A stretch of 63,677 nt of DNA, the filler included, from Hausera hauseri (lineage: Eukaryota), in the NCBI GenBank assembly GCA_046269625.1. It is 11 parts of 11 records of this genome, joined end to end, with 100 filler letters (N's around TTAATTAATTAA, not from the genome) between each part and the next. Parts side by side here need not be neighbours in the genome. Positions count along the whole stretch, not along the records: positions 44,163 to 49,472 come from JBJURY010283505.1; positions 49,573 to 54,474 come from JBJURY010397589.1; 9 more parts are not named here. One strand, given 5' to 3'. The position numbers and the translations under genes are program-made. Position 1 is the first letter of the stretch. The number at the start of each line of letters is the position of its first letter. Positions 1 through 63,514 of this stretch are shown here, in pieces. Below the pieces are notes generated by a model, which was not told where the DNA came from, made no database searches, and was given only the letters and a program-made list of their open reading frames with translations.

Positions 1-42
1 GGAGGCGCGGATTTTCCAACCCTACTCAAGCTGGGCGATGAT

Positions 43-24410: not shown

Positions 24411-24429
24411 AGTACCAAATAAGTGCTCA

Positions 24430-25430
24430 TCACTCAATATGCGACGGAAATATCCAACTCGGTATAATGTATCAGCGACACTTGACGAGATATTGTTTAT
24501 TCGAAAAATGGGCGGTTTTCCAGTAGTACTTGCAATTTCTGTTTGTAAAATTTTCCGAGTATTTTGTTACCATTTTAATTTTCTAAACCGTACATAACAG
24601 ATGTTTGATTTATGTTGATTGCTGAAATTCCCAATTGAAATTCTTAATGAATGGTGTCGTACTCAGCTTTGAAATAGGTACATGATCACCAATTTTATAC
24701 TTGGGACGTTTAATTAGTCGTTGTCGTTGTTGTGTTCGGTTCTGGTAAAACCCCATGTCCAATCATCGATTACTACCACCGGCCGTAATCCGTTGATACC
24801 ACGATGTATCGAATGATTGTATGCATGGATAATATCCGGTAGTACATTTATCCAGCGTTTTTTGCCCTGCTTGGTAAAGAATGTTTTCAGTCGGCGGCGT
24901 AAGATTTAATTAAACCGTTCAACAAGTGCAGCTTTGTATTATGAAAACACCGAGTAGTAGTTTACACGGAACCGCCTCAAAACCAATGCAACATGGAAGT
25001 TGCAAAATTCTTTACCCAAATCCGTTTGTACATGTTTCGGTGGTTGTTTTTGCTGCTTAATTAATCTGTGAATAGCGTCGGCAATCTCTTTACCCGATTT
25101 GGATTTGACAACAATTGTACGCGCAAAACTATTAAACACATCAATACATATCATCACATATTGATACCCATCGTTGATGCTGGCGTACGGAATCAATTCC
25201 ATGAGATCCATTTACAATACATTATTTACACCTGCAGTATGGTATACACGAGTTGAAAACCGCCTTCTTATCGGTTTGTTTAGGCTTTATGCTAACTCTT
25301 TTGCGAGCCAACGTTGGGTTTTTTACCGAGTCTGTTTGACATTCTTTGCCACTTTGTAGACGCCAATATACCTGACGGGATGACACGGATCATATCACAC
25401 GTCACCCATCGTTGTCGTCAATGATGTCAT
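24430..25430 (-). pseudogene. Polinton retroviral-like (rve) integrase
   Basis: YDP.HP, WL....AYSLNKPIRRRF, MDLMEL..NDGYQYVMICIDVF, VQTDLGKEF, KAALVERFN, YNHSIH, KYKIGDHV. Confidence 0.92.
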
Positions 25431-25554
25431 TTTTGTTTGCATTGCAGCAATTAGAACGAAACGTAAATGAAAGATTCGGTAAACTGGGGCAAAATGATAA
25501 AAACCATGCACCCATATCCCCGAATCACCATATATAAACTGTCATTGTTTATAT

Positions 25555-25880
25555 TATGCTGCAGAACCAGAGTCCACCTATTAATGACGTGACAATCGTA
25601 GAATTGCACCAAAGAATCCGCCATGTTGCTAATACATGACCTCTCGTTTCAGACGTTTACTACAAACGTTGGCAAAGGCAATGAATGGTTTTCGATACTT
25701 TAGTAAATTTCGCTTTCCACTCCCAATATCAACGTGACCCACAACGATATTGTACAAAATTTCCTTCAAATCGTCCACAAATTGCGGGAATGATCGCAGC
25801 ATGTTTCGCTTGTCTCGTAGTTGCCTCGAGCAAATCAATAAAGTATGGCTGATTACGTATGAATCGCATTTTTGGACGTA
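25555..25880 (-). pseudogene. Small Polinton core or membrane-active protein
   Basis: LKEILYNIVVGHVDI..LLKYRK..KRLKR..QHGGFFGAIL/TIVTSLIGG resembles the conserved small Polinton ORF (E..LN.L.G.V.....Q.GGF amphipathic end). Confidence 0.6.
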
Positions 25881-26103
25881 TTGATGCTGAGACGTAGTTG
25901 TTTATAACTGTTTCCACTGTGACGGTAATTTGCGTCTAGCTGATGCTGCTGTTGTTAGAAGCACAGAATTAATTAATATCTTGACTTTAGCGGTTCGATT
26001 TGATGAGTTTCTTGCCGGACACCCGCTTGGTAGGTTTACGTTTAGCAATTCTTTTTCGGAAATTCTTCATTTTATAACAATCATGTCGTCGATTTTTGAA
26101 TGT

Positions 26104-26665
26104 TTACACATGTACACCTTTCTGGCAGACAATATCTGTTCGTACACGCATGTCATCGGGACAATGGTGTGTAAAGTCATTAAACAAATATCCATGAGGT
26201 TTGCTCGTAGCATCTTGATATGCATCTATCAAGTAGGCTCGGTTGTGAGGAAATGCTTGTCGTGCAACATAATCAATGATAGTCTGACCACGAGGATTTT
26301 TGAACAACACCAAATAGTGTACGTTTAGATTTCTTGTTCGATGCTGTCCACCATGATAGATCATGTTTTGCGTAATGAAAATAACCGTCACACCACTGTA
26401 TCGCGCAATCTTCGCAAACAGGTTGTTGAATTCCAATTGTTTTGCGGCTTTCTGAAATAAATCGTCAATGACAATAACGTAATCGTTGCGTAATCCTCAG
26501 ACCAATTCCCATCAAACCCATCAGTCAACGTCATCGATTTTAATTTACAAAATTTCCGATGTCAAACCTGATTCACCATCATCACCAACACCCTGACGCC
26601 AGTAAATGTGGTTGTACCGCGGTGAATGGAACATTTCACGGTAGTTCTGCAATAGTTTACAAAGT
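26104..26665 (-). pseudogene. Polinton A32/FtsK-like packaging ATPase, Walker A region deleted
   Basis: YVIVIDDL (Walker B), VIFITQN, LNVHYLVLFKNPR, AYQDATSKPHGYL..RVRTDI. Confidence 0.9.
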
Positions 26666-26753
26666 GCAGCTTCATCTAAATAATACAACCTTTCCTAACA
26701 TAATTTGTTTATAATCGTGTTACACACATACATAGCTATAGTACACTGTTGCC

Positions 26754-27203
26754 ATGTTAGCTAATATCAACTATCGCGGAGATGTTACCGAGTGTGACAT
26801 TAACAAACTACCTTTTGATAAATGGAAGCCGAGGCAGTAGGTACTCAAATGTAAGCCGGATTTTACATGTATCATATTTCAATCGGGAAAGTGTCGTATT
26901 ATGGGTTGTCGCAAACCAATCACAGCTGACAGTAACAGTAAGCTACTGCGATTCGGAATTGTCATTGACAAAATCCAATAAATAAGGGTAACTACTCAGT
27001 TAGACTACCAAACAATCAATCTGTACAAATTAGCAATGGCCACTGAATGCACGTATGAACCCGATCTGTTTCCTGCACTGAGACTTACATCTTTTCGCCC
27101 ACTTTGTGTCAATTTGTTTAGCAGTGGAAAAATTGTTGTACTCGGTATTCGGACAGTGGACTACGAACCGATTATTAATGAAATTAAAAACCATATGTTT
27201 TAG
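26754..27203 (+). pseudogene. Divergent TATA-binding protein (TBP)-like gene, 149 codons, two in-frame stops
   Basis: One frame from ATG 26754 to TAG 27203: MLANINYRG..TCIIFQSGKCRIMGCR..KIQ*IRVT..INLYKL..YEPDLFPAL..VNLFSSGKIVVLGIR. Both TBP repeat signatures (FxSGKxxxxG) and the YEPELFP-like motif are present; stops at 26838 and 26979. Confidence 0.85.
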
Positions 27204-28157
27204 TGAATCGAAATAATGTACATTGCGTAACAAACTATAAATACAAATCCCATGGTCATTCAGACATTACTGCCATAAACGCCGNNNNNNNNNNNNNNNN
27301 NNNNNNNNNNNNNNNNNNNNNNNNNNNNTTAATTAATTAANNNNNNNNNNNNNNNNNNNNNNNNNNNNNNNNNNNNNNNNNNNNCTCATGTTTTATGGAT
27401 CACAATTTCTATGATCGAATAATTTGATCGAATTCTTGAAGATCAATTTCTATAAAAAATAGTATCAAATCAACTGAAATAATATGACAGATATCCACAT
27501 GTGGGTTTTGTTGGTATAGGAAATAAGTATTGACCGAATTGGAACACCGTTTTGATGATATACATTGAGAATAGAGGTACAGATGGAAGAATTAAATTTA
27601 TCATTAAATTTCTTAGCCCATGTCTAGGTCGTGTTTATTCTTTTATTTTGAACAGCAGTAAGAGTCATATCAAGAAATGATGATGACATTGTTGTCACAT
27701 TTTAACGAGGTTCAATCAAAAAATCAGTGGCCAAAATAATTCCGTAAATGTAAAAAAAATAATTTGTACTGATATTAATTATGAAGAATGGATGTCGCCT
27801 TAAATTACAAAATATCTGTAAGTCGTTTATCATAAAAATACGAAACAGAAAAGTGAGAGTTATTGTTGCAAGTCGTCCATTAATTGATTTCATTCCGCTG
27901 CTTAAATCCTCGAGTCGGAATTTTGTTGTAAGCGTTGTGTTGTGCGAAGATGAGTCAGAAAGAAGAGAAGAAGAAGATGAAGGAGGAAGAGAGGTTGTTG
28001 GAGACAGACGGTTGAAGGTGTTCAAGAGAGTGTTGGAAGGCAAAGGAATAAAAAGAGGTGTAGTGGCGGATGAAGGAGGAGAGACGAAAAGTGACATAGA
28101 AATTGAAATGGTATTAGATGAAAGAGTAGAAGTAGAGGATGAAACAGAGGTAGTAGT

Positions 28158-28723: not shown

Positions 28724-29348
28724 GTAGTAGAGAGAGGAAGAAAGATAGGGATAAGAGTAGAGAGGGAAGGAAGTTGTGAAGCGGAGATGAAAGGAGTAAA
28801 AGACGATGTGTGAGGAGAGAGGGAGGAAGCGAGCACCGAAGATAAGGAAGGTGTGGAAGGAGAAAGAGAGAGAGAAGACGGTGAAGAGGGACAAAACGGA
28901 AGAGAGCAAGAAGATAGAGAAATTGGTGAAGTCAAAATGGTGTTTGGCGGAGGAGGTCTTGTAAAAGGAGAAAGCAGGTTGTCACCAGGGAATGGAGGAG
29001 ATGTTAATAGGCTTGAAGGTGGAGAATCGTATGTGGAAAAGGGGGATGAAATATAAGAAAAAGTTGAAGTAGAAGTCTTGGGAGAAAACGTAGGCAAAGT
29101 GGATTAAAAAATTGAGCAAAGATGGGAGGTGAATTTTTGGATTGCTGTGCGTTGTATAAAGATGTTGGTGGAGAAGTTGTTTCGATAGGAGCCGTATCGT
29201 CAATGAAGAAAGCCGGCTTAGCGTTGTTGATGTGGACTGTTACTTCTTTGCCGTCCTTGAGAATGATGATGTTGTAAGAGTGTAAACGAATTACTTTGGA
29301 AGGGCCAACATACTGAGGTTAAAAACCACACGACGTCTGATTCTTTAG

Positions 29349-30200
29349 TCATACGAACTTGGCAGTATATAAATCGTCGAGTACGTATGGTTTATTTCCG
29401 TGTAACGGTCTACAAAATAAGTCTTTGCTGATTGCAATGAAGTGTCTCTGGGCCGCTTGTATTGCTTCGTCTGTAGGAATATTGGCCAGCTCAGCCAGTT
29501 CGAATAATGGTCTGATAGAAGTACAAAATAATGCTTCTGCAGGCGCGTAGCCTGTAGAAGTAGATGGTGTGTTCCTCCAGCCAAGCAGAACGTACGGAAG
29601 GAGTGTGGTCCAATTGCGATTGGACTCAGCAAGGATTTTAAGAGACGTTTTCATCGTTCGGTGAAAGCGTTTGAGACGGCCATTCGATTGAGGATGGTAT
29701 GGTGACGTATGAATGTGGTTAATTCCCAGTCTATTGACAAGAGCTTTAAACAGGTTGGATTCGAATTGTGGATCTTGGTCCGAAATGATGTAGCGAGGTA
29801 ATCCAAACCTGTTGATCCAAGTGCGGATGAAAATGTCTGCGATTGTTTCTGTGTTGGTGCTCCGAAGCGGGACAGCCTCTGGCCATCGCGAGGAACGGTC
29901 CATCAATATGAGAATGAACTGATGGCCGTTGTCTAAGAGTAGTGGGCCTACAAGGTCAATGTGAACGGATTCAAAACGAGACGTGCAGGGAAAATGATAC
30001 AGTGGTGACTTTAAGTGCTTAGTAACTTTGTATTTTAGGCATGCCACACACTGCCTAATCCATGCCTGCACGTCAGAACGCATCGACGGTTATACTACTT
30101 GGCGTTGTAAGAGACGAAAAGTGGCTTTGGCACCGGGATGGTTCAACGAATGGATGTTGTTGACTTTAGGATTATTAGGTTTGGAGGTGTCAAAGGCCAC
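29349..30200 (-). pseudogene. Gypsy integrase
   Basis: H..HPG..CVAC zinc-binding domain, DLVGP, SDQ; third catalytic residue mutated (LKRFHR). Confidence 0.9.
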
Positions 30201-32324
30201 ACCGTCGATGGTTTTGCACGATGTAAAAGACTTAAGAATGTCTGGAGGTGGTTGGTTTTGTTAAAGTTTGGATTGAGAAAAAATTGGTGTAAAATCGGTC
30301 GAGCTGACCGATCGGGACAAAAAGTCAGCTACTAAATTGTCGACTCTGTTTAGGTGCTTAATTTCAAAATTAAATGTGGACAAATACGATATTTGCCTCT
30401 CCTGACGTGTTGAAGGCGATTTCATGGTAAGAATTTGAAGCAATGGCTTTTGGTCTGTTTGTATTGTAAAGGTTTGTGCGGTTAGCAGATGCTTAAAGTG
30501 TTTTACGGCAAGGACTATTGCAAGCAACTCTCGGCCAAAGGTTGAATATCTTTGCTCTTGTGCCGTGAATTTTCGAGAGAAGAATTCTAATGGCTCATGG
30601 AATCCATTTTTAACTTGATGGAGGACAGCACCTGCAGCTGTTATGGATGCATCTGTGTTTAAGAAGAGTTCTGCATGGGAGTCGGGATAAGCCAAAATTT
30701 CCACGGATTTTAGATTATCTTTGAGGTGATCGAAAGCGTTGACTAGCTTGGCGGTCCATTAAATAGGCTGTTTATTCTTGCCAGAGCTTAGTGATGCAAA
30801 TAGAGCGGTTAGAGTGGAGCAGTGTGGAATATAATTATGAATAAAGTGCAAGGTTCCGAGGAAAGAACGCATCTCTGTTGATGCATGTGGTAGCTGTATA
30901 TTTTTGAGCTGTATGGTGCACTCTGGCTGAGGTGAATGTCCGGAGGAGCTAATAACATGTCCTAGGAATTTGACCTTATGTTGAAAAAAGTGCATTTGGA
31001 GAAATTAATTTGCAAGTTGTTTTGGTGCAAGGGTTGGAAGATTAAACCTAAGTGCTCGGAGTGTTGTTTCGAGGAAGATGATGCAATTATGATATCATCG
31101 ATATAGGGTTAAGCAATGTCTAAACCTGATAGAACTGTATCAATATGCCTTGGGAAAGTCTTGAAAGCGCTGTGGAGTCCAAAAGGCATGAAATGTATTC
31201 GAAAAGGCCGAAAGGTGTAATGACAGCCGTTTACGGAATGTCTTCTGGGGCCACCGGAATTTGGTGGTATGCTTTGTGCAAATCAATGCAGGATAAAATG
31301 GTCGAACCATAGAGCCTGTGAAGAATATTATTGATTAATGGTAAAGGGTAGGCATCCATTGTTGTTATGATGTTGAGTTGGCGGTAAACACCGCATGGGC
31401 GAAAGGTACTATCTTTTTGGGAGCCACATGTAGTGATGAAGACCACGGAGATTTGGATCTTCTGATTATTCCTGATCTTTCCAGTTCGAGAAACTCAGCC
31501 TCCACTGTCTGTCTGCGACGAGGCGATAGCGGGCGGACCTTTTGACGTATGGGTCGTTGATGCGCTGTTACTATGTGATGGAAGGTGGATTTAGGTGGTA
31601 CGAATGATTTGTCCTTTTGCAACAGACGTGTGCAGGAAAACGAAATATATTGCTGTATGTCAGAGAGCAACGATGAAAATTTTTTGATGTTGTCGATGTA
31701 TCGTGATTGGATGCAGTTGATGTATGAGCTGTAGACGAGGTGTTGTGACAAGGTGGTATTAGGTGCAGGATGTTCGTGTTGAAGATGATGTTGGCAGCTG
31801 TTGTATCAGTAATAGGTGCCACGCAGTTGGCAATATCGTATTCGTTGCAGTAATAAAAATTTCTATATAATAAATGATTATAAAAATAATTCAAATCGGA
31901 AGTCGTTTTCTTTAGTATTGACTTGCTGGAATCGATCGCCCGGGTGGTCACCGAAATGCTGATAATTTGATTAAAGTTATTTCCGCTCTTTAAGGAACAT
32001 CGTTTACATTATACAAGTAAATTGTAGTACGGCAGAAAGTCTGAACCCAACATAGGTGTGCGTACATTGGCTATTGTAAATTTCCATGTGAATGTAGTTG
32101 GAAAGTGTGGAAGAGTGAACGTTAATATGGTAACTCAAAAAATTTGTAAAGGTTCATTGGACGCAATGAACAGTTGCTTTTTTGAAGTAAAATTATTTTG
32201 GATGTGTTGTGTTGGTGGCAGTAAGGAGATTGCTGCGCCGGTGTCTATGAGAAAATTAATGTTTTGCTTTGTTGGAGTGACGACTGCTAATTCCAACGTG
32301 AATACAGCAAAAGAAATGTGTCGG

Positions 32325-33220
32325 CTATCTTTTTGCAGGTTGTTGCCTTTGCTGGAACTCGTCGTGTTTCCCAGCGGCGAAATCAGTTTTTGTAGCTGGT
32401 AAGTTTGGCCTACTATTTTGTGTGGGTTTAATAGTGTTGATTTTATTGTGCGTGTTGTAGTTACAGCCAGTTAGGCATTTCTGTGCTTTTGTTCCAAATT
32501 TTGCGTCATAGATGCAAACGATGTTGCTTGTACTAAAATCGGAGGCGTAAAATTTACAACCGATGCAGCATTTCTGAGCATTGTTACCAAATGTATTGTG
32601 ATAGTAGCAACTAGACGACAGCGTGGGCGAAGGCGACCGTCTTTGTCGTTGATGAAATACATTAGGGGAAGCAGCCCTAGAAAAACCTCGTCGAGGCAGC
32701 GTTAACTCATTTAATTTCTTGTTTATGTTTTTAATTGTTTTTTGCAAAATTTCGTTGTCTGTGCGTAATTGCACAATTTGTTGCTGCAGCATTGCATTTT
32801 GTTGTTGGTGGTTTGTTGTTAATGCCGCAGAGGCAGTTGGTGCTGTGTGTGAGTGCAACACTTCATAGGCTTTGTCCGCCAGTTCGGCTAACTTTTTCAG
32901 TGCCGTGGAGTCTTCGACCGCAGTAAGCAAAGCTCTTATATGAAGGGGAAATGCGTTTAAAAAGTAACGACAAAGAAGTTCTGGACTATGCTCAGATGTT
33001 ACGCCAAGGATATTGAGGTGAGACAAAGATGTGCGCAAGAATTCAGAAGGCTTCGGAAGGACCATGGCGTTGTCATTGAAGAACCTTTGAATGATCGAGT
33101 CGGTTGACGGCTCAGTGAGCTTAAGAACAGAATTATAAAGTTGAGCATATGGATCGGTGTGGTGAAGGATGTCGATGATGTTTGTAATTTTGGTTTTGAT
33201 GATTTTTAACTTTGTACTAT
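32325..33220 (-). pseudogene. gag: Gypsy gag, 5' truncated, duplicated CHCC-like motif
   Basis: CYYHNTFGNNAQKCCIGC followed by CIYDAKFGTKAQKCLTGC. Confidence 0.82.
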
Positions 33221-33227
33221 AGATTAT

Positions 33228-33602
33228 GTGACTAAGCCAGATAAGAAAGTATTCTATTGTCCAAAATGTGACTATACATCGTTCGTCTCTCATTATGACG
33301 TTCGAAAACACTTGTTCAACATTCACTTCAATTGTTCTTGGAAATTTGCATTGTTCGTGATGAAATTTGTGAGTTCCAAAACAGTAATTACGAAATTGCC
33401 TTTGACTAGCAAATTGAATGAAAAATATGGAGTAAAAAAAGAATCGGTCTGTGTACCAGAAAGTAAGAAGAGGAAAGTAGATATATGTGACAAATGGAAC
33501 AATATGAAAATGTCGCACGACCAGTCAGAAGTTCTTTATCAAGGAAACAAGTTTTTACATACCAATAACAGTTCTTTTGAAGTAGCAGTAAGAGTGGATT
33601 GA
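33228..33602 (+). CDS. C2H2 zinc-finger-containing ORF or exon fragment
   Basis: FYCPKCDYTSFVSHYDVRKHLFNIH. Confidence 0.5.
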   Translation: MTKPDKKVFYCPKCDYTSFVSHYDVRKHLFNIHFNCSWKFALFVMKFVSSKTVITKLPLTSKLNEKYGVKKESVCVPESKKRKVDICDKWNNMKMSHDQSEVLYQGNKFLHTNNSSFEVAVRVD

Positions 33603-44162: not shown

Positions 44163-44499
44163 CTCCCTTTAGACTTCTGATGGAGATTTTTATTGGTGTG
44201 TACCATCTGTCCTCTTTTTCCCCGTAGTTCACTGCTAGAATTCTAACATTTCTGCCATCTGGAGCTAGCTTAAACAATTCTCCATTCTGTTCTATGTCGT
44301 CTTCTAAAGGTTTCTGTAGGCATGTGATTGGCGATCGAGATTTCATTAATTCGGTATGTAATGTTAGTTCAATAATGATCTTTGTTGGAATATCGGCAAT
44401 TCTGAATTCTAGGGCGTAATCCATAAGACTAGAGCAACACAGCTCATACGTACTAAATTTCCATTGTTGACCCCTTTGAGTATTCCAGGGTTGTCCCAC
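44163..44499 (-). pseudogene. Unknown ORF, last visible member of the virus-like cassette, runs off the contig
   Basis: Open frame of more than 110 codons, co-oriented with the cassette; no recognised motif. Confidence 0.35.
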
Positions 44500-45000
44500 G
44501 ATCCTATATTAAATTTCACCGTCTGCCAAATGTATGTACATTTGCTGGTGTGTTGGTTCATAGGGAATTAAGCCTTTCAACTGGTACATCCTTCGTGTCT
44601 AATCGCATATAAGCGAATTATCCGATTTTCTTCTAGGCCCTATTTTAATCCATGGGATATTCTATTTTCTTAGTCGATTTCTAAACATGTATTCGCCAGG
44701 TTCTTTCCAATTTGGTGATATAAACTTTTTGATCCAAGATTCAGGACTGTAATATGCTGCTGTAAGAAGTCATTCATATAGTGTCTAGAACTCTGCTCTG
44801 GGATTTTCGTCTTCTCGACCATACTTACGCTTATGAAATAAAAACAGGTTAACGTTAAGACAGATCATCGTTTTAAAACAAACCATTTTCTCAGTCTGAT
44901 GATAGGATAACCCGATCTATAACTGTCAGGTTATTCCATCATAAATTTTGTCTCGGTACCTTTTACCAGTATATCTTTCTCTTGATTTTTACGTCGCTTA

Positions 45001-45990
45001 TTAGTTTTTGGAAACTAAAAAAATGGTCGTTGTTATTATGCTGACAACGAATGTTGCCAGACCAAAAATTGATATTATCGATAAATTTGTTGGCTCAGTT
45101 AGATTTTCCGTAGTAATCGTGTTCTCGGTACTAGTATCTTTATAAGCTATTGCTCGAATTTCGTTTAAAGTTCGTAGTGTGAAAGTTTTGTGCCTTTTGC
45201 CTTCTGCAAAAAATTGGATTACATAATCGAGTTCTGGTCGTAGTAGTTTACATTCGGTTTCCTGACGACCCCCTTTTAATATTACAATTTGATTAGTATG
45301 TAGGATATGACATTCAATTTTAATATCGTAGTTTAATTTCTCTCCGACGAAAAACACAATTTTATAGTGGTGCGTTAAATACTTAACAGGTATACCTTCT
45401 AATTTTCTTTCGGGCATTTTACTTGAAATGACGATATTAGAAAAACTGCTTAAAACAATAGTCGGTTTTCTTGCAGTCACGTAGTAAGGAATTTTTCACA
45501 TTCAAACGTTCTCTTCTGGATAAGTTCTTAAGGGAATGCTTGATTTGCCAGGTCTGATCTGAAAGTTCGAATTGTATTTTATATTCGCGACCGATTGGTA
45601 GTTCACAACATGGATTTGGTAATTTAGGTCCATTATAACAATATTTCGCTGTGGGACTCGACTTCTTTATTGGTACGAATTGAATGAAAATTTGTCTATC
45701 GTTGGCTAGTACTATTCTAGTTTTTATCTGAATACATTTTTCTTTATCTTTGGAAATTTCAATTATATTATCGTCCAAAATTCGTTTCTGAGAGTTGGAA
45801 ATTCGGATCATTTTTCTAATTTTATCTCTCTGACCCGACTTGGAACTGGTATAGTTATTTTTAACTGTGGACCTAGCTCGGCTTTGATCATGTTTGAGTC
45901 TTGATATGTGCATGAGTTTCTGAAATTTATCTCGCAGCACTGTTGGAAATCTTCCGGAGGAATATTGCAATTTTGTGTTATATTTTTGTT
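45001..45990 (-). pseudogene. Type I membrane protein with possible fibronectin-III-like domains
   Basis: CCELPIGREYKIQF and CKLLRPELDYVIQFFA (LxPxxxY-like), Thr-rich stalk, TM SIISIFGLATFVVSIITTTIFLV. Confidence 0.5.
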
Positions 45991-47610
45991 CTTATTTCGA
46001 AATACTATTTGGAAAATTGTGAATTCTATAGGTAGCCCAGTAATGACTCCCATTTTCCTTGATAGCCAAAGTCCTCTAATATGATATGCATAGCTCGGTT
46101 CAATTCATGCGTATGCTGGCGTGGAAAGTCAAGAAATTTTCTAAATGCTTCAACTACCTTCCGTCTGTAAATACCTGTAGTCGCGGTGTAATAAAATTTG
46201 TCGTCCTTTATTCCTTTTACTAAGTTGGTTCCCGTTAATTTACTTGGCGGAGTAGTTATGTCTCAATTTGATAAACTTATCAAGTCAGTTTAAATACGTC
46301 TGAACATGGGTCTCTCCTAGACTCGTTTTACACTCTTTCAAAATCTTTGCTTAAGTTAAGTTTGCTAGTAAAACTCTAGTAATTGGTTTTGCCAACCTCA
46401 GCATATTCCGATATAATACTGGAAGTTCTTGCACGAATCTCTTTTCTTCTACATTTATGGGTACATTTCTTTTTTCGCATTCGTAAGTCAGTGAAACCTC
46501 GTCGGTAACTCAACCAAAGACACCTTCTTTCATTGAAATTATTGGTGACGCTAACTCGGGATCAGCATATATAAGAGCCAGTTTAGTTCTCATGATTTCC
46601 GAGTCTAATTTTCAATCATTGATTATCATTTCATAATTTACAGTGCGGTTATTCCGGCTTGTCCTTTGTAATAGAAGTAGTCATCTCTATTCATCTAGTA
46701 ATCCTCAATTCGTACGTCTTATGCTTCGAGTTTGAATGCCTTAATATTTATTTCCGTTTCGGCTACAAAAATGCTTCACAACTAGTGGTGTACAACATTA
46801 CGTCACAGCGTGTGAGTACGCCTTTTCACGAATTTTAATCCGTAAGTATCGGAAACTAATATGGTTGGCATAGGTTGTACGGCTACATGTCGCGTTTTCG
46901 AACCAGTATCCATACTGTTTACATAACGTTTTCTCAACGTTTCGTTAAACTTTAGTTCTTTAATTTTGATAAAATTACAATCCGTTTTAATTGGAGGTTC
47001 CCAAATTTCGACTGAATTGCTAAAAGTACAAGTATCGTCTTGTATATGACACTTGATTTTCAGTAGAGTTTAGTAACGCTAAGAAACATCGCTTTTTGTG
47101 TCCGAATTTCGGTTTCATAAAAATCGACAACTACTACGCCTTCATCTATTCCTTTTTGCAGTGTCATATTCGGCCTCACTGCATACTCCGGTATGTATAT
47201 CTAATTTTCCGACTGCTACTTTAAATGACCTGATTATTTTTCCTTGTATTATTAGTTTCATATCATCCCATTTTAATCTAACAGTTTCTCTAGCATGTTT
47301 ATAGTGTTGTCTTTCTAGGTTCATTGAGATTGGTGGAGTTGTTGGTTTTATTATCAATGAATGTCCACGCATTTGTCCAGTGGAAAATACCACGAGATAT
47401 ACGTAATATAATATTCCGTCTAACGAAATTAGCTCACGCTGCTGATATAATACGTACTTTTTATCTTGTTTATAATTTATGTGGCCTCGCGTAGTCGCAC
47501 GTTTCTAAATCGATCAGTGAATATTTTTGGCCAAGTTTGAATTTGTCACAGTCATACACGGTAACAGTTCCCATTTGCTTTACTAACACCATCAAAGTTA
47601 GGAAGTTAAT
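45990..47610 (-). pseudogene. Chuvirus-type (class III-like) envelope glycoprotein
   Basis: Signal-like INFLTLMVLV then VYDC..YSLIDLETC; YVLYQQRE; GQMRGHS; VAVGKLDIHTGVC..Y; KCHIQDDTC..IWEPPIKTDCNF; RTKLALIYADPELAS..EGVFG*VTDEVSLTYEC..QELPVLY..KPITRVL; TGIY..FRKFLDFP; all collinear with the chuviral G pattern. Confidence 0.8.
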
Positions 47611-48084
47611 TAGCTAATTCGATTCGTTTCCTCAGTTATTACCGGTTAAGTTTCGTACCTCATCTTCGAGTCTGCTATCGCCATTGATAGAGGATGGTCT
47701 ATTCTGATGTTATTCCTTTTCAAATAGTTTGGACCAATTTACTTTTCGAGGTAATTTTCTAACAGCTTTCCGGGCTAGACTAGTGGCTCTGTTAAACTCA
47801 TTTTCTCGCGTTGGATTTGTTTTAATGGCCTAATATAGTAATACATTTCTCAATTCTTCTAGTATTTTCTACCATGATTTTCCCAATTAATATTTCATCG
47901 GCTAACGTGCTCTTTGACAATCTAAAACGAGAATTTCTCATCGTTATGGCTGCATTAATGTTGGCCTTTTCTGTTTCGTCTAGTACATCGCCGCAGAGAC
48001 TAGAGTAGTTTAGGGCACGTACTAAATTCTTCGTGAGTTCGTTTAATTTTTAATTATCTGCATTGAAAGTAGGTATCGACATTT

Positions 48085-48681
48085 ATCTTAATTCTCCAAT
48101 CAAGTCTTCATTATAGTCAATTTCTCGTATTTTTCTTGGTCTACCAACGGGGCGTTTCTGTCTTGCTGTGACTAAATTCATATCGTATTGTTCCTTGTCT
48201 TCGTCTGTTTGCAAGTATTTGAAATACATTACCGCATCTCGCACTCTCATCATTCGCCCTACAAAATGGTCAGCTTTAGCTTTCTATATGGCTTCTTTTG
48301 TCTTTTTATTGACGACTATCGTTACTGTACAATTTGCTTCATCTGGGATGATCCCATCGTCTATTAAATGTTCTAATTCGTCTAATATTCGGCCTCTAAA
48401 ATAGAGTATATAGTTTAATTCGTTTCCGCCGCCATTATTTATTAAACATGGTTTTACATCTCTCACAAAGGAGTGTATCTTAAACTCACATCCTTTTCCA
48501 TCCATCGACGCAGACGACACTTTACTTTTATCGTCACATCAGGTTTAGCCCTTAAAATTTTAGTATACTTTTTTATTAAGAGTTTTGGCACAGCACCATA
48601 AATCGCGTTTTCACTAGATAATTTAGTTACAATAGGAACATGTTGCCTTAACTTATTTTCGATAATATTTATGTTAATCAC
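48085..48681 (-). pseudogene. Unknown ORF ending in an AT-hook motif
   Basis: ORFs 48463-48681 and 48284-48520 join by frameshift and continue past one TAG to KRPVGRPRK (48131-48157). Confidence 0.5.
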
Positions 48682-48682
48682 T

Positions 48683-49300
48683 TCAATTAAATCTCTCCGT
48701 TAGTGCTGAATCCAGAAGCATTTTCACATTGAATCTCCAATTCTGTGGGTATATCGCCGTTTCACAAAGGTGTACTGGGGTTCTCGGATTCTCAGCAGCT
48801 ACTGCATATAAATACGCATCCCATTCTGGAACGTTTTTATTTTCTGGAGGTCCATAGTCAATTATTGGCATATCTGGTTGTTGGACTGTATTTGCATTCC
48901 GTACCATTTCCCTTACTTCGCGCAATTTCTGTGGCATTTTGACCATTTGGCGCATCCGGAAACAACGTCCATTTCCGGAAACTTGATGCAATAATGTTAA
49001 CAGCTGATAGAGTTCATCTGCCTGAATCAATGCTTTTCTTGATAATCGGTTAGTTCGGAGGTCACATCTCGTTGCCATCTTTGTACAAATTCCGATTTAT
49101 TGGCTATTTCTGATTCGGTAAGAGCGTATTTACATCTGTAGACTTCCAGCTCTACTTAACTCATTTATTTCTGTTTTTCTTTGGTCGGTACGAATTTGGG
49201 TTTTCTCAGTGTAGTTGTCTCATTTTCTCATCGCTGATTTCGGCCATTTCAACTACCAACAGCGTTAATTTGCTAATCTCTTCTAAAATTTTAGAGTCGG
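48683..49300 (-). pseudogene. Unknown ORF (helical N-terminal part) of the virus-like cassette
   Basis: 131-aa open frame plus frameshifted upstream coding-like sequence; abuts the next ORF. Confidence 0.4.
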
Positions 49301-50879
49301 GATTAGAGTGCCACTTAGTTACATTAAAAAATTAAAATTGTAATTTTCTTAGGTCTTACCCTGCTTACTTGTTCTCTTTGATGAAAAAACACTAAATATG
49401 AACGATTTCATAAGCAACAAATCATCGTATGGAGCATTTGATGCCTCGGGTGCAGAGATCCTATCTTTCATGNNNNNNNNNNNNNNNNNNNNNNNNNNNN
49501 NNNNNNNNNNNNNNNNTTAATTAATTAANNNNNNNNNNNNNNNNNNNNNNNNNNNNNNNNNNNNNNNNNNNNCCGTGTATTACGGGAGAGATTTGTGATC
49601 GATTTGACATTGAAAATACAATATTTTACATTAAAAATCAAATCGACGAACAAAGGTTTACACAACTCCATTCAGTTTCCTGAGTTGCGAATGACGACGT
49701 ATTCAACAACATCGAACAACTCGCTTGCGATGGTATCTGGAAATATTAGATGTCCGTATCGTGATCATGTACCGAATTGTGCTTACAAAAATGTCTACGG
49801 CTTTGTATTAACTGTTTCATGCAAATAAATAAATGTTCGTATTTTCTTCTTTCGGTAAATAATGTTCATGACATGTTTAGCACTATTGGTCAGTTGAGTA
49901 ATTCAAAAACCATAAATACGGGTAGGTTATAGTAATAATAGTCATGGGCTGTAATGGAAATCGTACACATTTATTACGAATGACTTCAGTAACATGGGGG
50001 TAATTTGTATCATTGTGATAAGACAATACTCACAAAGTAAATGTCTATTGTTTACAATGGAAACAAACCTTTGATATAAATATGGATGCAATTTTATTTC
50101 ACATTTATCTTGAAAAAATTTCTTGGGAAAACAATTCAGCCGTTGACAGTCTCTCAAAAAAGCCACGGTACACCGAATATTCGTTCAGATATTCCCGGTT
50201 TCATAATATATACAACTTACATTATCTGCGCAACGCTATTCAATTGTCACTGATGCAGACGGTCAAAGTCAAACCGGTGAAATATGTTCGATTGGCCAAA
50301 AAGATCAGCGACGATTATTTCGATACAATGGAAGACAATTAGAAACGTTGGCAGTGATTTGGCGTTGAGTAACGATATCCGAGATACATCGTCGATTTTT
50401 CTCAAAGGAAATATGGCGAAAATTGTTAATATAGATGGTGGAGAAACAGCAGCAGCAGCAGCAGTTTTTCCACCGGAAGGAGCTAAATGCTACCCGACAC
50501 TGAAGCTCAAGGGATTCAAGGAAAGGAGCGGCGTAAAATCCCCAATGTGGAAAATGGGGAAGTTTACTATGATTTAACTGACTTACTTTGTGTGTTTTGT
50601 GATTTTAGTTTTTCTGTGATCAACAAATTAATGTATTCGTGTTTTCTCGTGCAAGGTTATTGTTTTACTTTTCTATCTTACTTAATAATAATGGGTTAAG
50701 TAAGTAACCGAAAACAAAACACAAGACATTGAACAAAATACGTTATTGAAATATACAAGAAACAATATACAACGGATAATTGTCAATGACTGTGGCACAG
50801 TAACTGAACTGAACTGATTTGTCCGAACCGACTGAGCACAGATTGTTTGGACCTGCGTTTATTTCAGCCGCGAATGTTC

Positions 50880-53800
50880 ATACGCCCAAATCTTATTTCG
50901 CCCTATTCACTTTCGTTTATCACCGTTACATGATAAAGCGCTAGTTATTGTGTACAGCTGGTGCTCAATTGATCAGATGATCGTTTAAGACAACAGCCAC
51001 TGATTGTCCTACTTCTGCTGCTTCTTCATATATACGTCGATAATCACCGTGGTCGATTTCCGTCTGCCTCAGCTGGACTCCTTTTTCGCACATTTTCGGT
51101 CCACAGTCCGTCAGAAGACTGGCAATTTGGTCGTAGGAATATTCATTCCCGATACTGAACCTACCTTCACTTTCATCCTTGAAGCAGCCGATTTTGTTGG
51201 TGATCGTGCTGCTGTACAACGGATGATCCGGCGGATAATTGGACGTGTCTAGAAGTTCATCTGCCATCATTCACAGGAGCAGTTGGTTGCGATTGACGTT
51301 TTTCACCTCAAGGAAAAATCTGTCTGTTACCCGCAACGATACTGATTTCACAGCCGTCGAACATTTGTCGGTAACGTGCCAAGTCGCGATACTTGAGCTC
51401 GTATATTCGCATCTTGCTCAGGTCGAATACCACTTCTCCGATGTAACTTGGCCGGTCCAGAACGACTTTTCTGTTTAACAGCACCGCAACCAATCCATCG
51501 ACAATGTGCATTGACCACCGAAATTGTGCCTTGCTGGTATACGTAACCAACCGCTTTTCGTTGTTTCATAGGCGTACATCGAGCCTCATTTTCAGATTCT
51601 CCACTGTTTTTCCATACAGAAAATTGTTTTTCAGCTTGTAGTAGTCCTCGAACTTTGTACAATGTGCGGCTCGTTTCTCCCAATTTCCATGGATGTGCCT
51701 TTTGAATATGGGAGCCTGAGCAACTCGGATTGCACGATGCAGTTATGTGACGCGTACACTCAAATGCATGTAAAATCGCAACAGACGACAATGAACTATG
51801 TAATTTTGCAAGGGTTCATGCGTCATAAGCAGCTTCTTCACCTTCGAGCCCGGCGGACAATGGCTATTTGGTGCGACCAATAAATCGTCCAAAACGTCAT
51901 GCAGCTCATCTGGTACCACGAGATCGACCTCCATCAGGTATCCGCTGGAGCTGTTTTCTGCTCTTGTCGTGTCTGCTCTCGATAGATTTTCCAGTATTGT
52001 GTTCAGGTCCTGTTTGTCAACTACCCATTCGAATGAACCGTACGGCAAGGGTTGTGAAAGCGCCCAGCCATACAGGTTTTCAATGTCGATATACAACAGT
52101 GATGTGGTATCATCACTGATTACGTGATGCTTGTTGACAAATGTCATGCCGCCACGAATACCGACATCAAACATTCGGTACATTTCCGGTCTTGAAATAG
52201 CTCGATATCACGATCCAGTGGCATCAGAGCTGATGCCCAACTCATTTCGGGTAGTTAGTAAAAGTTGAGTGGCCCCAGCCTATCCTTTGCCAACGCTTTA
52301 GTGCTAAACGCCTGGAATATATCGGCTAATAAGTACACGTCCAGTTTAAGATACTGGAGCATGTACTCCAACATATTTCTGCAGCCCACTTCTGTCCAAG
52401 ATTTTTGTGCTCTCCGATATTCGTCTTCTGTGATGTCTGTCCATCGCGGCGGTAATTACTCTGCTGTTCGGAATCACTCATATGATGTTGAAAAGTCATG
52501 GAAATATGCCTTTGCTGTCTGCAATGTGTGGAACTGCGTTGGGGTTATCGGTACATTTGCCAAGGCATTTACCAGCTTCGCTAGTGATTCATTGAGAAAT
52601 TGCAATGAATCAAGGAAGCGTACCTGGAAGCGGTTTATGCGTACTAACAGTGGCAGGTACTTCTCCATTGTTGGAATTATGGACAGTTCCCAGTGCGGAA
52701 ATCCGTTGATGGCCCACTTCAGTATATGGTGCCAATCATAACCTCGGAAATTATGAAAGATCACCGGTAGAAATAGCCGCACACACCTTGTTAAATTTCA
52801 TGCGTTGCATGCTACTGCCAGGTATCGACCGGTGAAATGATCATGGTCCGGTACGAGCCGTTCCTGTGTGTCAAAAGCAATATTTTGTGGCACAGGTAAC
52901 ATTTATCGGTGGCAGCGAAAAGCAGCGGTTCATATTCGCCTGTCCATATCAAGGGCTTAGTGCTATTGTTACTGTACCGTGGTGCGATTTCTGTTTCCAC
53001 TATCGTTTCCAACTGTTGCAGGTAATAGCGTATACAGTTACAGCAATGAAAAACGTAACATTGCAGTTGTCCGGCGGCTTTTATTGGAACAAACAATATA
53101 CCGACGGCTATTGGAATGTGCTTTTGGTCGTGTACGTTGTGTCGCTGTAGGATTGCCTCGATATCGGTATATATCATATATGCCGGACTGTTTGTTTTCG
53201 ACCAGTTACTGAATCTCAGCTCTTTTTTGACTGACATGACGTACATTGTTGCCCCTGATGAACTTTGTCTGCACAGCGCCACGTTTTCCCCATGTCGCTT
53301 TTGACGTGAAACCATGCAGACATGTAAGGTACCATTTACAATTGATACGCCTTTTGATGAGTTGGTGGTGATCCATGTTTAGTAGTCTGTCCAAGTTGGT
53401 TACTGCAACGTAGTGAAATTTATCTGCTTGCTTCAACAGCAACAAATTTAGCGAGCGTCCATTCGGGTTCCGACTGCGACAAATTATATCCACGTGTGGG
53501 TTTTTGTATAACTCTTAGTCTGCTGGTATTTCTACGATTGTGTTGTACCGGAAAACGTTGATTGCCAGAATAGGATTACGCCGTTAAAACGTCGGGATGG
53601 ATTTCAGATTCATCGGCATCCAGTTTTCATTGAATTCCAATTCGGAAAAATACTGCCGGTACTGATTTGGACGATTTTCATGATTTCTAACCACTTCGTC
53701 GTATTTTAATATAGGCAGAATATTGTAAATAAAACAATATTCGCCGCCGGTGTTTTGTACATTCACTACCGCCAGAGACTGCTTTAGAGATGCAGGTGTC

Positions 53801-54260
53801 GGTATGAATGACCGTTCAGATAAATATACCACGTCACTCGACTTTGTTATGATAAAGCCGATAGTGGCAATTCATATAATTCGCAATCCGCTACCCTTTT
53901 CGGTATAATTGAAGATTTTCTCATCCAACTTTTCGCCTACATCGGCAATAAAATCTTCCGAATATGGTACGACTCGATGTGATAGGTACCATTGTTTCCT
54001 GTCACCTTCAACGTTTTCAAATTCTGTAAGTGCATAATATTGCACTTTGCAGTGGTGTTGGTGGAATTTTCTCACTTCTGATTCCAACCGGCTGCGCACA
54101 CTGAACGGAACATGCTTCAGCTGTAGTGTTGTCCCTGACATGTTTACTTTCACATCCACGTACGATTTGTTTAGATCGTACTTGATAGTTATTGAAGGTT
54201 CCTCCTGCTACTGCTGCTGCTGCTGTTCGGTACTGTTTCGGATGTATTCGTCAAGACTTG
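50880..54260 (-). pseudogene. Near full-length Polinton pPolB with endonuclease VII-like insertion
   Basis: KGSG, VVNVQN..CF, LLLL..HY..VTNLDRL, YTDIEA (ExoI), DHDHFTGRY..ACNA, FHNFRGYD (ExoII), FLDSLQF, YLKLDVYLLADIF, IRGGMTF, YIDIENLYGWALSQPLP, KLKNNFLYGKT, DTSNYP, IGCFKDE. Confidence 0.95.
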
Positions 54261-55039
54261 TTGAGGCCTGACGCTTCAGAAAAAAGAAATCTTACTCCCT
54301 TATAAACAATTATTCTAAACGCTATAACAACAACAATTACAAATCACATGGAGCAGTATATTGAAAGCGAGATATAGAAATTGACCGATGACATTTTGAC
54401 TGGACATGTGCTTGATATTCAGTTTTTGTGAGCTCGCAAAAACCAGAATAATTAGCCGACGGGAATATATTGAANNNNNNNNNNNNNNNNNNNNNNNNNN
54501 NNNNNNNNNNNNNNNNNNTTAATTAATTAANNNNNNNNNNNNNNNNNNNNNNNNNNNNNNNNNNNNNNNNNNNNTTATGGCTTCAGCCACTCCATTTGTA
54601 AGTGCTACTGTGTCTTCTAGTATGTGTGACTTGGATAATATATAAACTGTGTTTGAATTATGATTAGTGATTTTGTCGGTGAGAGAGATTCATTGTCTAG
54701 CAAGTGAGAGAATGTGTTGGTGTGTTAATTGCTTTGGTTGTTTATACACGTTCACTTCATGTCTAGCCACTGAGCATAAGAAACTGAACAAAGAAGAATA
54801 AGAATACATGTTCACAGATAAAGGTGTTCATGAATTCATCAATAAATAATAAGATGTTTAATAAAGGAAAGGAAATATGAATAAACAATAATAACTTCAT
54901 GAGGGACAAATGTAAAGTCTGGCAGGATTTGTATGTTTTGTCTGCTTGAAAGTTAAATTAGTCGTTATTAATGGACATTCAAAGCATTGCAGATAATAAA
55001 ACTGACAAGACAAGGCAAGACACAATAACTTAGCTGAGA

Positions 55040-60249: not shown

Positions 60250-63200
60250 GTGGTTTGGCAGCTTGCGTACCATGACGACCCCCAGAGCTATACCAGCGGG
60301 AGTTTTACTCCTGGCAGGTTCAACCAAGCTGGGCAGGTCTGCGCGGGTAGGGGTCAGACAAAAGTGAGCACCCTGGTCCTCCAGGTTGGGGGTTGGGCGT
60401 AGGGTTAGCAACCCAACACCGTAAAAGAAAATTCTGCTACAGAAACTGCAACTACATCGATTGAACTTGGACTTGGTCAAGAAGGTTCCTCTTTTGAAGA
60501 GTCCATGACGTGCTCTGGTGAAAGCCTTCGGGAAGCCAGCTCACCGACGAACCTTCTGAATATCAAGTCTCCAACCAGGATAGGGACCTGGAACATCAGA
60601 ACCCTTTATGATAGTGGTAGAGTCCAGGAAGTGGCCAAAGAAATGAGGCGGTACGAACTCAAGGTCCTAGGACTCAGTGAGACCCGATGGAATGGGAGCG
60701 GTCTCAATAGACTGACATCTGGAGAGACCATTATCTATTCTGGACATGAAGACCAAGACCATGACCACACACAAGGAGTAGCTCTTTTAATGTCACCAGA
60801 GGCAACCAGAGCAATGCTAGAATGGAAACCTGTTTCTCCACGGCTAATTTCAGCAAGGTTCTATGCTAAGGGGCGGAAAGTAACTATCATCCAGGGCTAT
60901 GCACCCACAAATGCTGCTACAGAAGAAGAGAAGGAAGATTTCTATTGCTCTCTCCAGACTCTGCTAGACCAATCACCTAAGAGGGACATCAAGTTTATTA
61001 TGGGCGACCTGAATGCAAAAGTGGGAGCAAATAATGAGGACAGAGAGCTTCATATGGGAAAACATGGCGTAGGCACATGCAATGAAAATGGAGAGCTTTT
61101 TGCCGACTTCTGTGCTTTTAACGACCTTATAATTGGTGGAACCATCTTCCCACACAAAACCATACACAAGACAACCTGGTCCTCCCCAGATGGCAAAACG
61201 GAAAATCAAATCGATCACATCACTATTTCTCGGAAGTGGAGAAGAAGCCTACTTGATGTCAGAGTGAGACGAGGGGCAGATGTAGCCTCTGATCACCAAC
61301 TGCTTGTTGCAACTGCAAAGATCAAACTCAAATCTTTCAAGGACCCTGCAGGTAGACCTCATTACAAATTCAACACACAATATTTGAAGAGTGATAGTAC
61401 AAAGGAAGTATTCAACTGTGAGGTTAGAAACAAATTTGAAGTACTTGCTGGACTGGCAACAGACGAACCCATGGAGCAATATTGCCTTACCCTCCAGGAG
61501 GTATGGAGAGATACATGCACAGAGGTCCTAGGGAGAAAAACGAGAGAACACAAGGAGTGGTTGTCTGCAGAGACATGGGCCAAAATTCAGGATCGAAAAG
61601 AACTGAAAGAGAAGCTCAACAAATGTCAGAATGAAGAGCAGAAAACAAACCTAAGAACTCAGTATAGAGAAGCAAATAAATCTGTGAGGAAGAGTGCAAG
61701 AGAGGACAAAAAACGTTTCATCCACGAAATGACAGATGATGCGGAGAAGGCAGCTGGTAAAGGAGACATGAAAAGGTTATACGAAATAACAAGAACCCTA
61801 TCAGGAAGAAATACCAACACTAACAAGCCAGTGAGAGATGAACAGGGTAACATCATTACCAGCGACTTTGGACAGAGAGCAAGATGGGCTCAACACTTTC
61901 AGGACATCTTGAACAGACAACCTCCAACACATATTCCAGACATACCCCCAGCAGTGGAACTGCTAAACGTAAATACTGGCCCTCCCACTAAAACGGAAAT
62001 CATCAAGGCCATCAAAAGTGCAAAAAGTGGAAAGGCGGCAGGTCCAGACGGCATACCACCAGAGGCGCTAAAGGCAAACCCCACAACTTCAGCCGAAATG
62101 CTACATCCTCTGTTATGCAAAATTTGGGAGCAGGAACAAGTCCCGTCAAACTGGAAACTGGGATACCTGATTAAGCTACCAAAGAAAGGCGACCTCACCC
62201 AATGCAACAACTGGCGAGGAATCATGCTACTGTCCACACTCAGTAAAGTCTTAACCAGAGTAATGCTCGAACGGCTGAAAGATGCCCTAGACAAAAGATT
62301 AAGGCCAGAACAGGCTGGTTTCCGACAAGACAAATCATGTACTGACCATATTGCTACACTTCGAATCATCATAGAGCAATCCATCGAATGGCAGTCCCCA
62401 CTGTACATGATTTTTGTGGATTTTGAGAAAGCCTTCGACAGCATTGACAGAGAAGTGATTTGGAAGCTGATGCACCACTACGGAATTCCACCAAAGTTCA
62501 TTAACATCATCAAACAGCTATATGAAGGCTCGTCGTGCCAAGTGATACACAACAATAAGCTTACTGACCCATTCCCAGTGAGAACAGGAGTAAGACAAGG
62601 ATGCATGCTTTCACCCCTAATATTTTTGTTGGTCATTGATTGGATCATGAGAAAGACAGTCTCCAACAACAAAAATGGCATTCAGTGGACCTTAACTCAA
62701 CACCTGGAAGACCTGGATTTTGCCGACGACATCTGTCTTCTTTCTCACACACAACTAAATGCTCAATCCAAATTAAACAGACTTTCAGAAGAAGCACAGA
62801 AAACAGGACTACTCATCAACCAAAAGAAAACAGAGGTAATGAGAATAAATAACAAACTAAATGACCCAATTGAGCTACAGGGGAAGAACATCCAGGACAC
62901 GGACCACTTTACCTACCTTGGAAGCATGGTTAGCAAAGACGGTGGAGCTGATGACGATATTCGAAGTCGTATAAATAAAGCCAGGTTTGCCTTCAACACC
63001 CTGCACGCTATCTGGCACTCCAAAGCACTGTCTCTACAGAACAAGATCCGGATTTTCAATACAAACGTTAAGGCAGTGCTCCTCTATGGTTCTGAAACTT
63101 GGAGAGTCACCATTTCTAACACCAAAAAGCTCCAGGCCTTTGTCAACAACTGTTTGAGGCGTATATTAGGTGTTAGATGGCCGGAAAAAATAACCACTTC

Positions 63201-63514
63201 CAATCTATGGGAGAGAACCAAGCAGAATCCCATAGCCCAAGATATACAAAAGCGAAAGTGGAGTTGGATAGGACACACCTTGAGGAAAGCTCCTGACAAT
63301 GTCACTAAACAGGCTCTTGACTGGAACCCACAAGGAAAAAGGAAAGTGGGCAGACCTAAGCAAACTTGGAAGAGGTCGGTCATTAGTGAAGCTGAGGGCG
63401 CCGGCATGTCATGGGAACAGATGAGGAGAATCGCTCAAAACCGAGTCAGGTGGAGAGGTGTGGTTGCGGCCCTTTGCTCCTCAAGGAGTCCCAGGGAATA
63501 AGTCAAGTAAGTCA
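60250..63514 (+). mobile_element. Full-length RTE-clade LINE
   Basis: About 250-nt 5' UTR, single APE-RT ORF, very short 3' tail TAAGTCAAGTAAGTCA overlapping the stop. Confidence 0.93.
60505..63501 (+). CDS. RTE endonuclease-reverse transcriptase, 998 aa, intact
   Basis: APE: GTWNIRTL, LGLSETRW, YAPTN, GDLNAKVG, NQIDH, SDH. RT: DFEKAFDS, GVRQGCMLSP, FADD. RTE C-terminus WIGHTLR..WNPQGKRKVGRP. Confidence 0.97.
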   Translation: MTCSGESLREASSPTNLLNIKSPTRIGTWNIRTLYDSGRVQEVAKEMRRYELKVLGLSETRWNGSGLNRLTSGETIIYSGHEDQDHDHTQGVALLMSPEATRAMLEWKPVSPRLISARFYAKGRKVTIIQGYAPTNAATEEEKEDFYCSLQTLLDQSPKRDIKFIMGDLNAKVGANNEDRELHMGKHGVGTCNENGELFADFCAFNDLIIGGTIFPHKTIHKTTWSSPDGKTENQIDHITISRKWRRSLLDVRVRRGADVASDHQLLVATAKIKLKSFKDPAGRPHYKFNTQYLKSDSTKEVFNCEVRNKFEVLAGLATDEPMEQYCLTLQEVWRDTCTEVLGRKTREHKEWLSAETWAKIQDRKELKEKLNKCQNEEQKTNLRTQYREANKSVRKSAREDKKRFIHEMTDDAEKAAGKGDMKRLYEITRTLSGRNTNTNKPVRDEQGNIITSDFGQRARWAQHFQDILNRQPPTHIPDIPPAVELLNVNTGPPTKTEIIKAIKSAKSGKAAGPDGIPPEALKANPTTSAEMLHPLLCKIWEQEQVPSNWKLGYLIKLPKKGDLTQCNNWRGIMLLSTLSKVLTRVMLERLKDALDKRLRPEQAGFRQDKSCTDHIATLRIIIEQSIEWQSPLYMIFVDFEKAFDSIDREVIWKLMHHYGIPPKFINIIKQLYEGSSCQVIHNNKLTDPFPVRTGVRQGCMLSPLIFLLVIDWIMRKTVSNNKNGIQWTLTQHLEDLDFADDICLLSHTQLNAQSKLNRLSEEAQKTGLLINQKKTEVMRINNKLNDPIELQGKNIQDTDHFTYLGSMVSKDGGADDDIRSRINKARFAFNTLHAIWHSKALSLQNKIRIFNTNVKAVLLYGSETWRVTISNTKKLQAFVNNCLRRILGVRWPEKITTSNLWERTKQNPIAQDIQKRKWSWIGHTLRKAPDNVTKQALDWNPQGKRKVGRPKQTWKRSVISEAEGAGMSWEQMRRIAQNRVRWRGVVAALCSSRSPRE

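Follow-up and report, generated by a model that had tools for sequence, protein, structure and literature searches.

A Hausera hauseri contig with a gB-type envelope gene and no pol is very probably the interior of a decayed Burro-type Gypsy retrotransposon

The window analysed here is a 63,677-nucleotide stretch (filler included) of Hausera hauseri DNA, GenBank assembly GCA_046269625.1, in which 11 unrelated contigs are joined by linker blocks. Its eighth contig, JBJURY010283505.1, occupies exactly positions 44163-49472 between two linkers and, as the first-pass annotation had stated, is filled throughout by a virus-like cassette, with both contig ends falling inside coding sequence. The coding signal is confined to the minus strand, where A exceeds T in 18 of 18 windows, in agreement with the co-orientation noted previously. 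In the direction of coding, the domain order is a linker, a ubiquitin-like domain, an AT-hook, a helical segment, an envelope glycoprotein (env), FN3 repeats with a membrane anchor, a stop, and a second open reading frame (ORF2) leading into a DnaQ/DEDDh-like domain (Table 1). The cassette had been described as five or more separate ORFs. The coding itself is real, but the relatives indicate that the upstream ORFs are one polyprotein (ORF1) split by stops and frameshifts.

Table 1. Features placed on the contig, in order of coding
Feature	Position	Strand	Basis or state
ORF1 polyprotein part, including the open stretch 48686-49096; runs off contig end	48686..49472	-	Position inferred from locus L002 (Gag-CCHC upstream of the next domains)
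First helical segment; precedes the ubiquitin-like domain in relatives	48511..48684	-	Profile of 4 relatives, E 2.4e-4
Ubiquitin/SUMO-like domain	48305..48538	-	Weak direct evidence: profile E 3.8e-3 (match 48415-48329); L002 41% over 34 amino acids
AT-hook motif RPVGRPRK	48131..48154	-	Read in sequence
Second helical segment, where relatives have a Bcl-2-like domain	47700..48049	-	Position and helical prediction; no significant profile match
gB-type env (PF24664, chuvirus-like class III), internal signal segment to just before the anchor	46032..47613	-	Stops and frameshifts
Junction zone, env homology end to FN3 homology start; breakpoint ~46040	46032..46120	-	Inferred internal-deletion breakpoint
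FN3-repeat membrane protein: truncated first repeat, two more repeats, transmembrane helix, short tail, stop	44926..46041	-	P0001/P0004 homology
Transmembrane helix of the FN3 protein	45013-45084	-	Homology to P0004
ORF2: N-terminal domain, then first strands of a DnaQ/DEDDh-like exonuclease fold; cut by contig end	44163..44816	-	P0002/P0003 homology

The glycoprotein is confirmed. PF24664, the Monjiviricetes fusion protein family, matches one piece, 46261-46656, with an E-value (E) of 0.0012, below the curated cut-off. In addition, an env profile of 670 positions was made from 13 relatives, and its positions 8-544 match 47613-46032 colinearly in four frame pieces (E 1.5e-11, 7e-15, 8e-28 and 2e-8), so that the chuvirus-type glycoprotein recognised in the first pass is borne out. 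The match ends about 20 positions short of the membrane anchor, which lies at about profile position 566. Across the four frame spans 15 stops were counted, of which some of the nine in the middle span may be out-of-frame. The nearest env relative is the protein P0006 (42% identity over 104 columns), and the best env matches (E 3e-22 to 8e-9) are gag-env-pol polyproteins or their fragments, among which a tree of the env core also places the contig, again nearest to P0006.

Relatives were sought among 1.84 billion representatives with one frame of the contig, its stops written as X, which returned 25 matches: 21 to the env core, two to the FN3 part and two to the last ORF. A domain scan covered 17 of the 21 env relatives, four fragments of 100-246 amino acids being left out. 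PF24664 scored above its cut-off in all 17, a retroviral protease follows env in the same ORF in 11 (one just under the cut-off), and reverse transcriptase (RT) and integrase occur in five and four, respectively; no viral polymerase or nucleoprotein family was found in the 17. P0026, a 4844-amino-acid cluster member, combines env, several proteases, ankyrin, RT, RNase H and integrase. Among P0026, P0005, P0008 and P0010, single polyproteins hold several aspartic-protease-like repeats, which in P0026 make up six Pfam stretches, and there are also C2H2 fingers and ankyrin repeats. P0006 (HBK71150.1) is a full gag-env-pol polyprotein labelled as a protein of a Flavobacteriaceae metagenome-assembled genome, and so probably stems from animal DNA that was binned with bacteria.

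Three metagenome loci (L001, L002 and L003) were also recovered. The order in L002 is Gag-CCHC, helical segment, ubiquitin-like domain, AT-hook, Bcl-2-like domain and env, colinear with the contig upstream of env; Gag with CCHC knuckles is likewise present in P0005. In L001 a 3426-amino-acid ORF covers env, proteases, RT, RNase H and integrase and ends in a module of signal, ectodomain and anchor; a separate ORF matching PF00929 comes next. P0006, P0007 and P0026 have hydrophobic segments on either side of env and of the final module. In L002 a single in-frame stop codon (L002:3058-3060) divides the Gag-to-Bcl-2 ORF from env.

The relatives also guide the assignment of the domains that precede env. 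In a six-frame control across the whole window, the profile of the relatives' helical and ubiquitin-like regions found the first helical segment as its top match and the ubiquitin-like piece, colinear with it, as its second. The helical segment is 25% identical to L002 over 61 amino acids, and the ubiquitin-like counterpart in L002 matches PF00240 (E 4e-4) and ubiquitin-like PDB chains. The AT-hook noted in the first pass is present, and a GRP[RK] motif stands ahead of env in P0005, P0007 and P0026 (three of ten scanned) as well as in L002. The second helical segment occupies the place of a domain that in relatives matches human Bcl-2 (E 0.0018). A single-sequence model of 47822-48538 reached a predicted local distance difference test score (pLDDT) of 44 and gave no Foldseek match under E 0.001. 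The most upstream part is probably a linker/coiled-coil region following Gag, judged from its position; it has no Pfam, homologue or Atlas match (the Atlas run covering the open stretch). The contig starts past the place where Gag would be expected. From the layout of Burro1 a MATH domain had been supposed at 48460-48700, but this segment aligns with the helical region of the relatives and the idea was given up. No MATH, BIR, ankyrin or dUTPase domain was found in the contig.

Downstream of env, the FN3-like membrane protein proposed earlier is upheld by homology, with 50% identity to P0001 and 31% to P0004. Homology to P0004 runs from residue 92-95 on, across three frame pieces, to the transmembrane helix, while the tail and the stop (near 44926) were placed by eye against P0001 and P0004. 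A model of P0004 matches FN3 domains (Foldseek E 7.6e-9; VIA Z 9.4, root-mean-square deviation 2.0 over 75 residues), with a mean pLDDT of only 48.5. This protein would be the C-terminal module of ORF1. A short motif common to the FN3 module lies after RT in four of the seven RT-bearing relatives scanned (P0006, P0007, P0026 and L001), and L001 has a second copy ahead of RT. After the integrase, ORF1 of intact relatives (L001:2-10282, P0006, P0007, P0017, P0026 and L003) closes with a signal-like hydrophobic stretch plus an ectodomain, usually anchored; the module of P0017 and L003 is of a different type, without the FN3 motif. L001 carries a second signal-ectodomain module between its proteases, before RT.

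ORF2 is 43-51% identical to P0002 and 39-49% to P0003. Residues 246-331 of P0003 match the DnaQ structure 8h18 (E 8e-4), and its exonuclease-like part is related to ORF2 of L001 (E 2e-7), which in turn matches PF00929 (E 1.4e-5); the C-terminus of P0003 is a RING finger. The first exonuclease motif is acidic in L001 and has asparagine in the contig, P0002 and P0003, a degeneration from which this sub-clade may be predicted to encode a pseudo-nuclease. The longest contig listed for P0001 (FN3 and transmembrane helix) and for P0003 is 16,242 bases in both cases, so the two probably lie on the same contig, and the order FN3-ORF2 would then recur. An exonuclease-like segment was also noticed by eye in P0017 (residues 140-300), upstream of env within ORF1 and not as an ORF2.

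Searches for other gene content were negative. Pfam found no family in the six whole frames of the contig, and a pol profile scored at best -2.2 bits there, while Gypsy copies elsewhere in the window reached as much as 383 bits. The absence of RT and integrase, asserted in the first pass, holds. No match came from tblastn of the contig against phages, from word-indexed homologue searches (env piece, upstream frame and FN3 alignment), from a GTDB scan, or from PDB sequence searches with the env and ubiquitin-like pieces. IMG/VR scans with three queries confirmed nothing, one stretch passing tblastn but yielding no locus. A repeat scan within the contig found short chance repeats only, with no long terminal repeats (LTRs) or terminal inverted repeats.

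Between env and the FN3 protein lies a junction at which both are truncated within the same <90 nucleotides, the FN3 protein being without its first ~90 residues. In all 10 comparisons made over this zone the env frame scores higher than the other frame, each time weakly. The wider status of the sequence was assessed from contigs of the one public sequencing run found to contain it (X1, possibly the source sample), in which depth does not equal copy number. No RNA data set was listed as containing the stretch, which is uninformative about expression. There, 3310 contigs match the contig, over 30 of 30 bins: 66 at >=99% identity, 200 at 95-99%, 1004 at 90-95% and 2040 under 90%. Because so many match, most of them under 95% identity, the contig is a member of a dispersed, diverged repeat family and not a single insertion or host gene. 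Summed contig depth is in the thousands over env and 44-240 over the FN3 part. Along the contig it is highest (~18,500) at the ORF1 end/intergenic bin 44871-45047 and lowest over the FN3 repeats at 45048-46109; FN3 and ORF2 are similar in protein divergence among relatives despite this contrast in depth.

Taken together, the contig is very probably the interior of a Ty3/Gypsy LTR retrotransposon of Burro/GYPSM1 type, a dead and pol-deleted copy within an animal genome. This assignment is made because 21 of the 25 matches fall on the env core and the scanned env relatives carry protease, RT and integrase, because L002 is colinear upstream of env and L001 has the full order with pol and a PF00929 ORF2, and because the published Burro layout is the same. 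It agrees with one option of the first-pass annotation, that of a large enveloped retroelement. ORF1 of intact relatives encodes Gag, ubiquitin-like domain, AT-hook, Bcl-2-like domain, a gB-type fusogen between hydrophobic segments, protease(s), RT, RNase H and integrase, often ending in a module of signal, FN3 and transmembrane helix; their second ORF has, by homology, a DEDDh-type exonuclease fold. The hydrophobic segments of P0006, P0007 and P0026 suggest that the polyprotein passes the ER membrane several times, presumably with processing by the signal peptidase of the host and by the protease that the element itself encodes. The element would copy by ordinary reverse transcription and integration, and env may give cell-to-cell spread.

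Since the truncations of env and of the FN3 protein coincide, one internal deletion best explains the missing RT and integrase. It would have removed the anchor of env, the whole of pol and the beginning of the FN3 protein, at least ~4 kb as judged from P0006, so that the replicase, expected previously beyond the contig ends, was most likely lost from the middle of the copy. The stops and frameshifts found throughout point to later decay, and the copy would now encode nothing functional.

Several observations weigh against this assignment. The contig itself has no gag, pol or LTR, and membership rests on relatives at 25-50% identity. Pieces of the second helical segment reach at best E 0.36 against the relatives' Bcl-2-like profile and otherwise do not match it. 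In the env tree the contig sits on a long branch, with only moderate fork support (84/86). The FN3 module matches the post-integrase module of L001 weakly (E 9e-4, HH probability 23%), and a weak search found no pol-bearing protein with the exact FN3 module. Finally, no record among the X1 matches listed bridges the junction at ~46040, which would suit an assembly join and says little.

Non-autonomous and spliced LTR derivatives exist, and within the same family the junction could instead mark a sub-family without pol, or a spliced RNA that was reverse-transcribed and amplified in trans, perhaps with a gB ectodomain on an FN3 stalk. The position of the junction, just past the env ectodomain and ahead of its anchor, would suit such a design. 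However, the first FN3 repeat is without its first strands and signal, the env and FN3 parts now stand in different frames, and the drop in depth from env to FN3 does not suggest one amplified fused form, which makes this account unlikely. Marginally less probable again is that the env-FN3 join is an assembly chimera of two parts of a high-copy repeat family. The contig is short and the region repeat-rich, and one X1 record with 1 difference over 48194-48746 has 27 over 49072-49211, so mosaic copies or joins do exist. The unbridged junction fits as well, although a missing bridge means little among the matches listed, and a chimera would leave the family assignment unchanged.

It is highly improbable that the contig is the envelope or accessory part of a DNA virus or Maverick-like element not yet described, or that it is an endogenised chuvirus. 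Fusogens of gB type do occur in other element classes, and fragments of Polinton-type PolB and ATPase are present elsewhere in the window. However, the contigs carrying them are separate from this one and resemble it in neither DNA nor protein, all informative relatives are Gypsy polyproteins or ORFs linked to Gypsy, and IMG/VR scans with three queries confirmed nothing. For the same lack of similarity a link to the Polinton fragments was rejected. No PolB, packaging ATPase, capsid or terminal inverted repeat was seen within the contig. The DNA-virus option of the first pass has no support. A chuvirus (Jingchuvirales) genome or endogenous viral element was also rejected, as it had been previously: both flanks of the glycoprotein are assigned to retroelement-linked domains, and no L or N Pfam family appears in the six frames.

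The remaining contigs of the window are of mixed content. Decayed Polinton/adintovirus-type fragments lie at 49573-54474 and 23336-27284, one of these contigs with a protein-primed PolB (PF03175, E 6e-8) and the other with packaging-ATPase-like and capsid-like pieces recognised by eye. Positions 60409-63498 hold a long open LINE endonuclease-RT frame of 1030 amino acids, 1-3700, 17069-21300 and 29300-33500 ordinary Gypsy fragments, 13466-14242 a mariner fragment, and 10109-10516 an exon of a rhodopsin-type G protein-coupled receptor. The CpG observed/expected ratio varies from 0.37 to 1.23 among contigs, and the window may therefore mix organisms.

The gag-env-pol architecture is already known (PMC6431247; PMC13524379). 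Burro and GYPSM1 are giant Gypsy LTR retrotransposons (Jurka 2007; Grohme 2018, as described by Arkhipova & Yushenova 2019, PMC6431247), in planarians encoding Gag, MATH, ubiquitin/SUMO-like and BCL2 domains, an in-frame mononegavirus-like env and PR-RT-RH-IN, with ankyrin, BIR and RING motifs; decayed Burro copies are reported in Dugesia japonica (PMC6431247). The earlier view that the layout was undescribed is therefore superseded, env being published in frame between gag and pol. Like Burro/GYPSM1, the present family is multi-copy and has one polyprotein with the order ubiquitin/SUMO-like domain, BCL2-like position and env ahead of pol, and a RING-bearing accessory protein, here in the relative P0003. 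Unlike them, the contig copy is without pol and shows no MATH, BIR or ankyrin domain, ankyrin being present in the relative P0026. Burro1 is reported to be active and linked to stem-cell survival (PMC8532177, PMC13465017).

Chary & Hayashi (2026) catalogued GAG-ENV-POL Gypsy elements whose ENV is of the HSV/gB type, termed 'ancient errantiviruses', in flatworms, nematodes and bryozoans (PMC13524379), which counters the expectation that env directly follows pol. The family shares with them a gB-type env between gag and pol with hydrophobic segments on either side, but their set comprises intact elements only, whereas the contig copy is decayed. TPTVLM, an env motif that P0008 and L002 have in common, is present a single time in the env file of that work, in Smed_errantivirus_2 (Schmidtea, 215 copies), the wider likeness of their env being judged by eye. 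A DnaQ-family exonuclease ORF downstream of pol is shared with the bdelloid Juno/Vesta LTR retrotransposons, whose ORF3 is of DEDDy type with intact catalytic residues, mostly without env (Rodriguez et al. 2017, PMC5408684); here it is RNase T/DEDDh-like, accompanied by env, and degenerate in the first motif in the contig's sub-clade. The glycoprotein superfamily PF24664 is shared with Anakin, a BEL/Pao element with chuvirus G, and with chuvirus-derived endogenous viral elements, but Anakin belongs to another retroelement superfamily and has its genes in another order, and the env relatives closest to the contig are Gypsy gag-env-pol polyproteins (PMC10084718). Troyka (PMC12440569) was compared and set aside as not relevant.

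The FN3-transmembrane module and the DEDDh-like ORF2 are not mentioned for Burro in the available part of PMC6431247, and 'fibronectin', 'exonuclease' and 'Burro' have no occurrence in the available main text of PMC13524379. No published description of either feature was found for these elements, although Repbase, Jurka 2007, Grohme 2018, the Burro1 B-IAP paper or figure supplements may already annotate them. A literature search on fibronectin type III in gypsy polyproteins gave only papers apparently unrelated by title and abstract, and one combining Burro, planarian and fibronectin gave none.

The contig itself is a dead repeat, and its value is as a pointer to a second luminal module, of signal, FN3 fold and anchor, that ends the gag-env-pol polyprotein. 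The relatives also point to a DEDDh-like ORF2 with the first motif intact in L001 and degenerate in the contig's sub-clade. The case is also a caution, since a gB-type gene that has no pol close by can be what a deletion has left of a gag-env-pol element. Herpesvirus gB needs an attachment or triggering partner, and it is conceivable, if rather doubtful, that Burro-type elements are two-glycoprotein enveloped retroviruses in which the variable FN3-repeat surface protein, made from the same multi-pass polyprotein as the fusogen, would be such a partner, or a receptor decoy, and ORF2 a (pseudo-)nuclease countering host RNA defence; the junction could then belong to a sub-family that is spliced or has no pol. 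Should the FN3 protein serve as an attachment factor on virions, this would support the view of these giant elements as infectious proviruses and provide a concrete protein to test.

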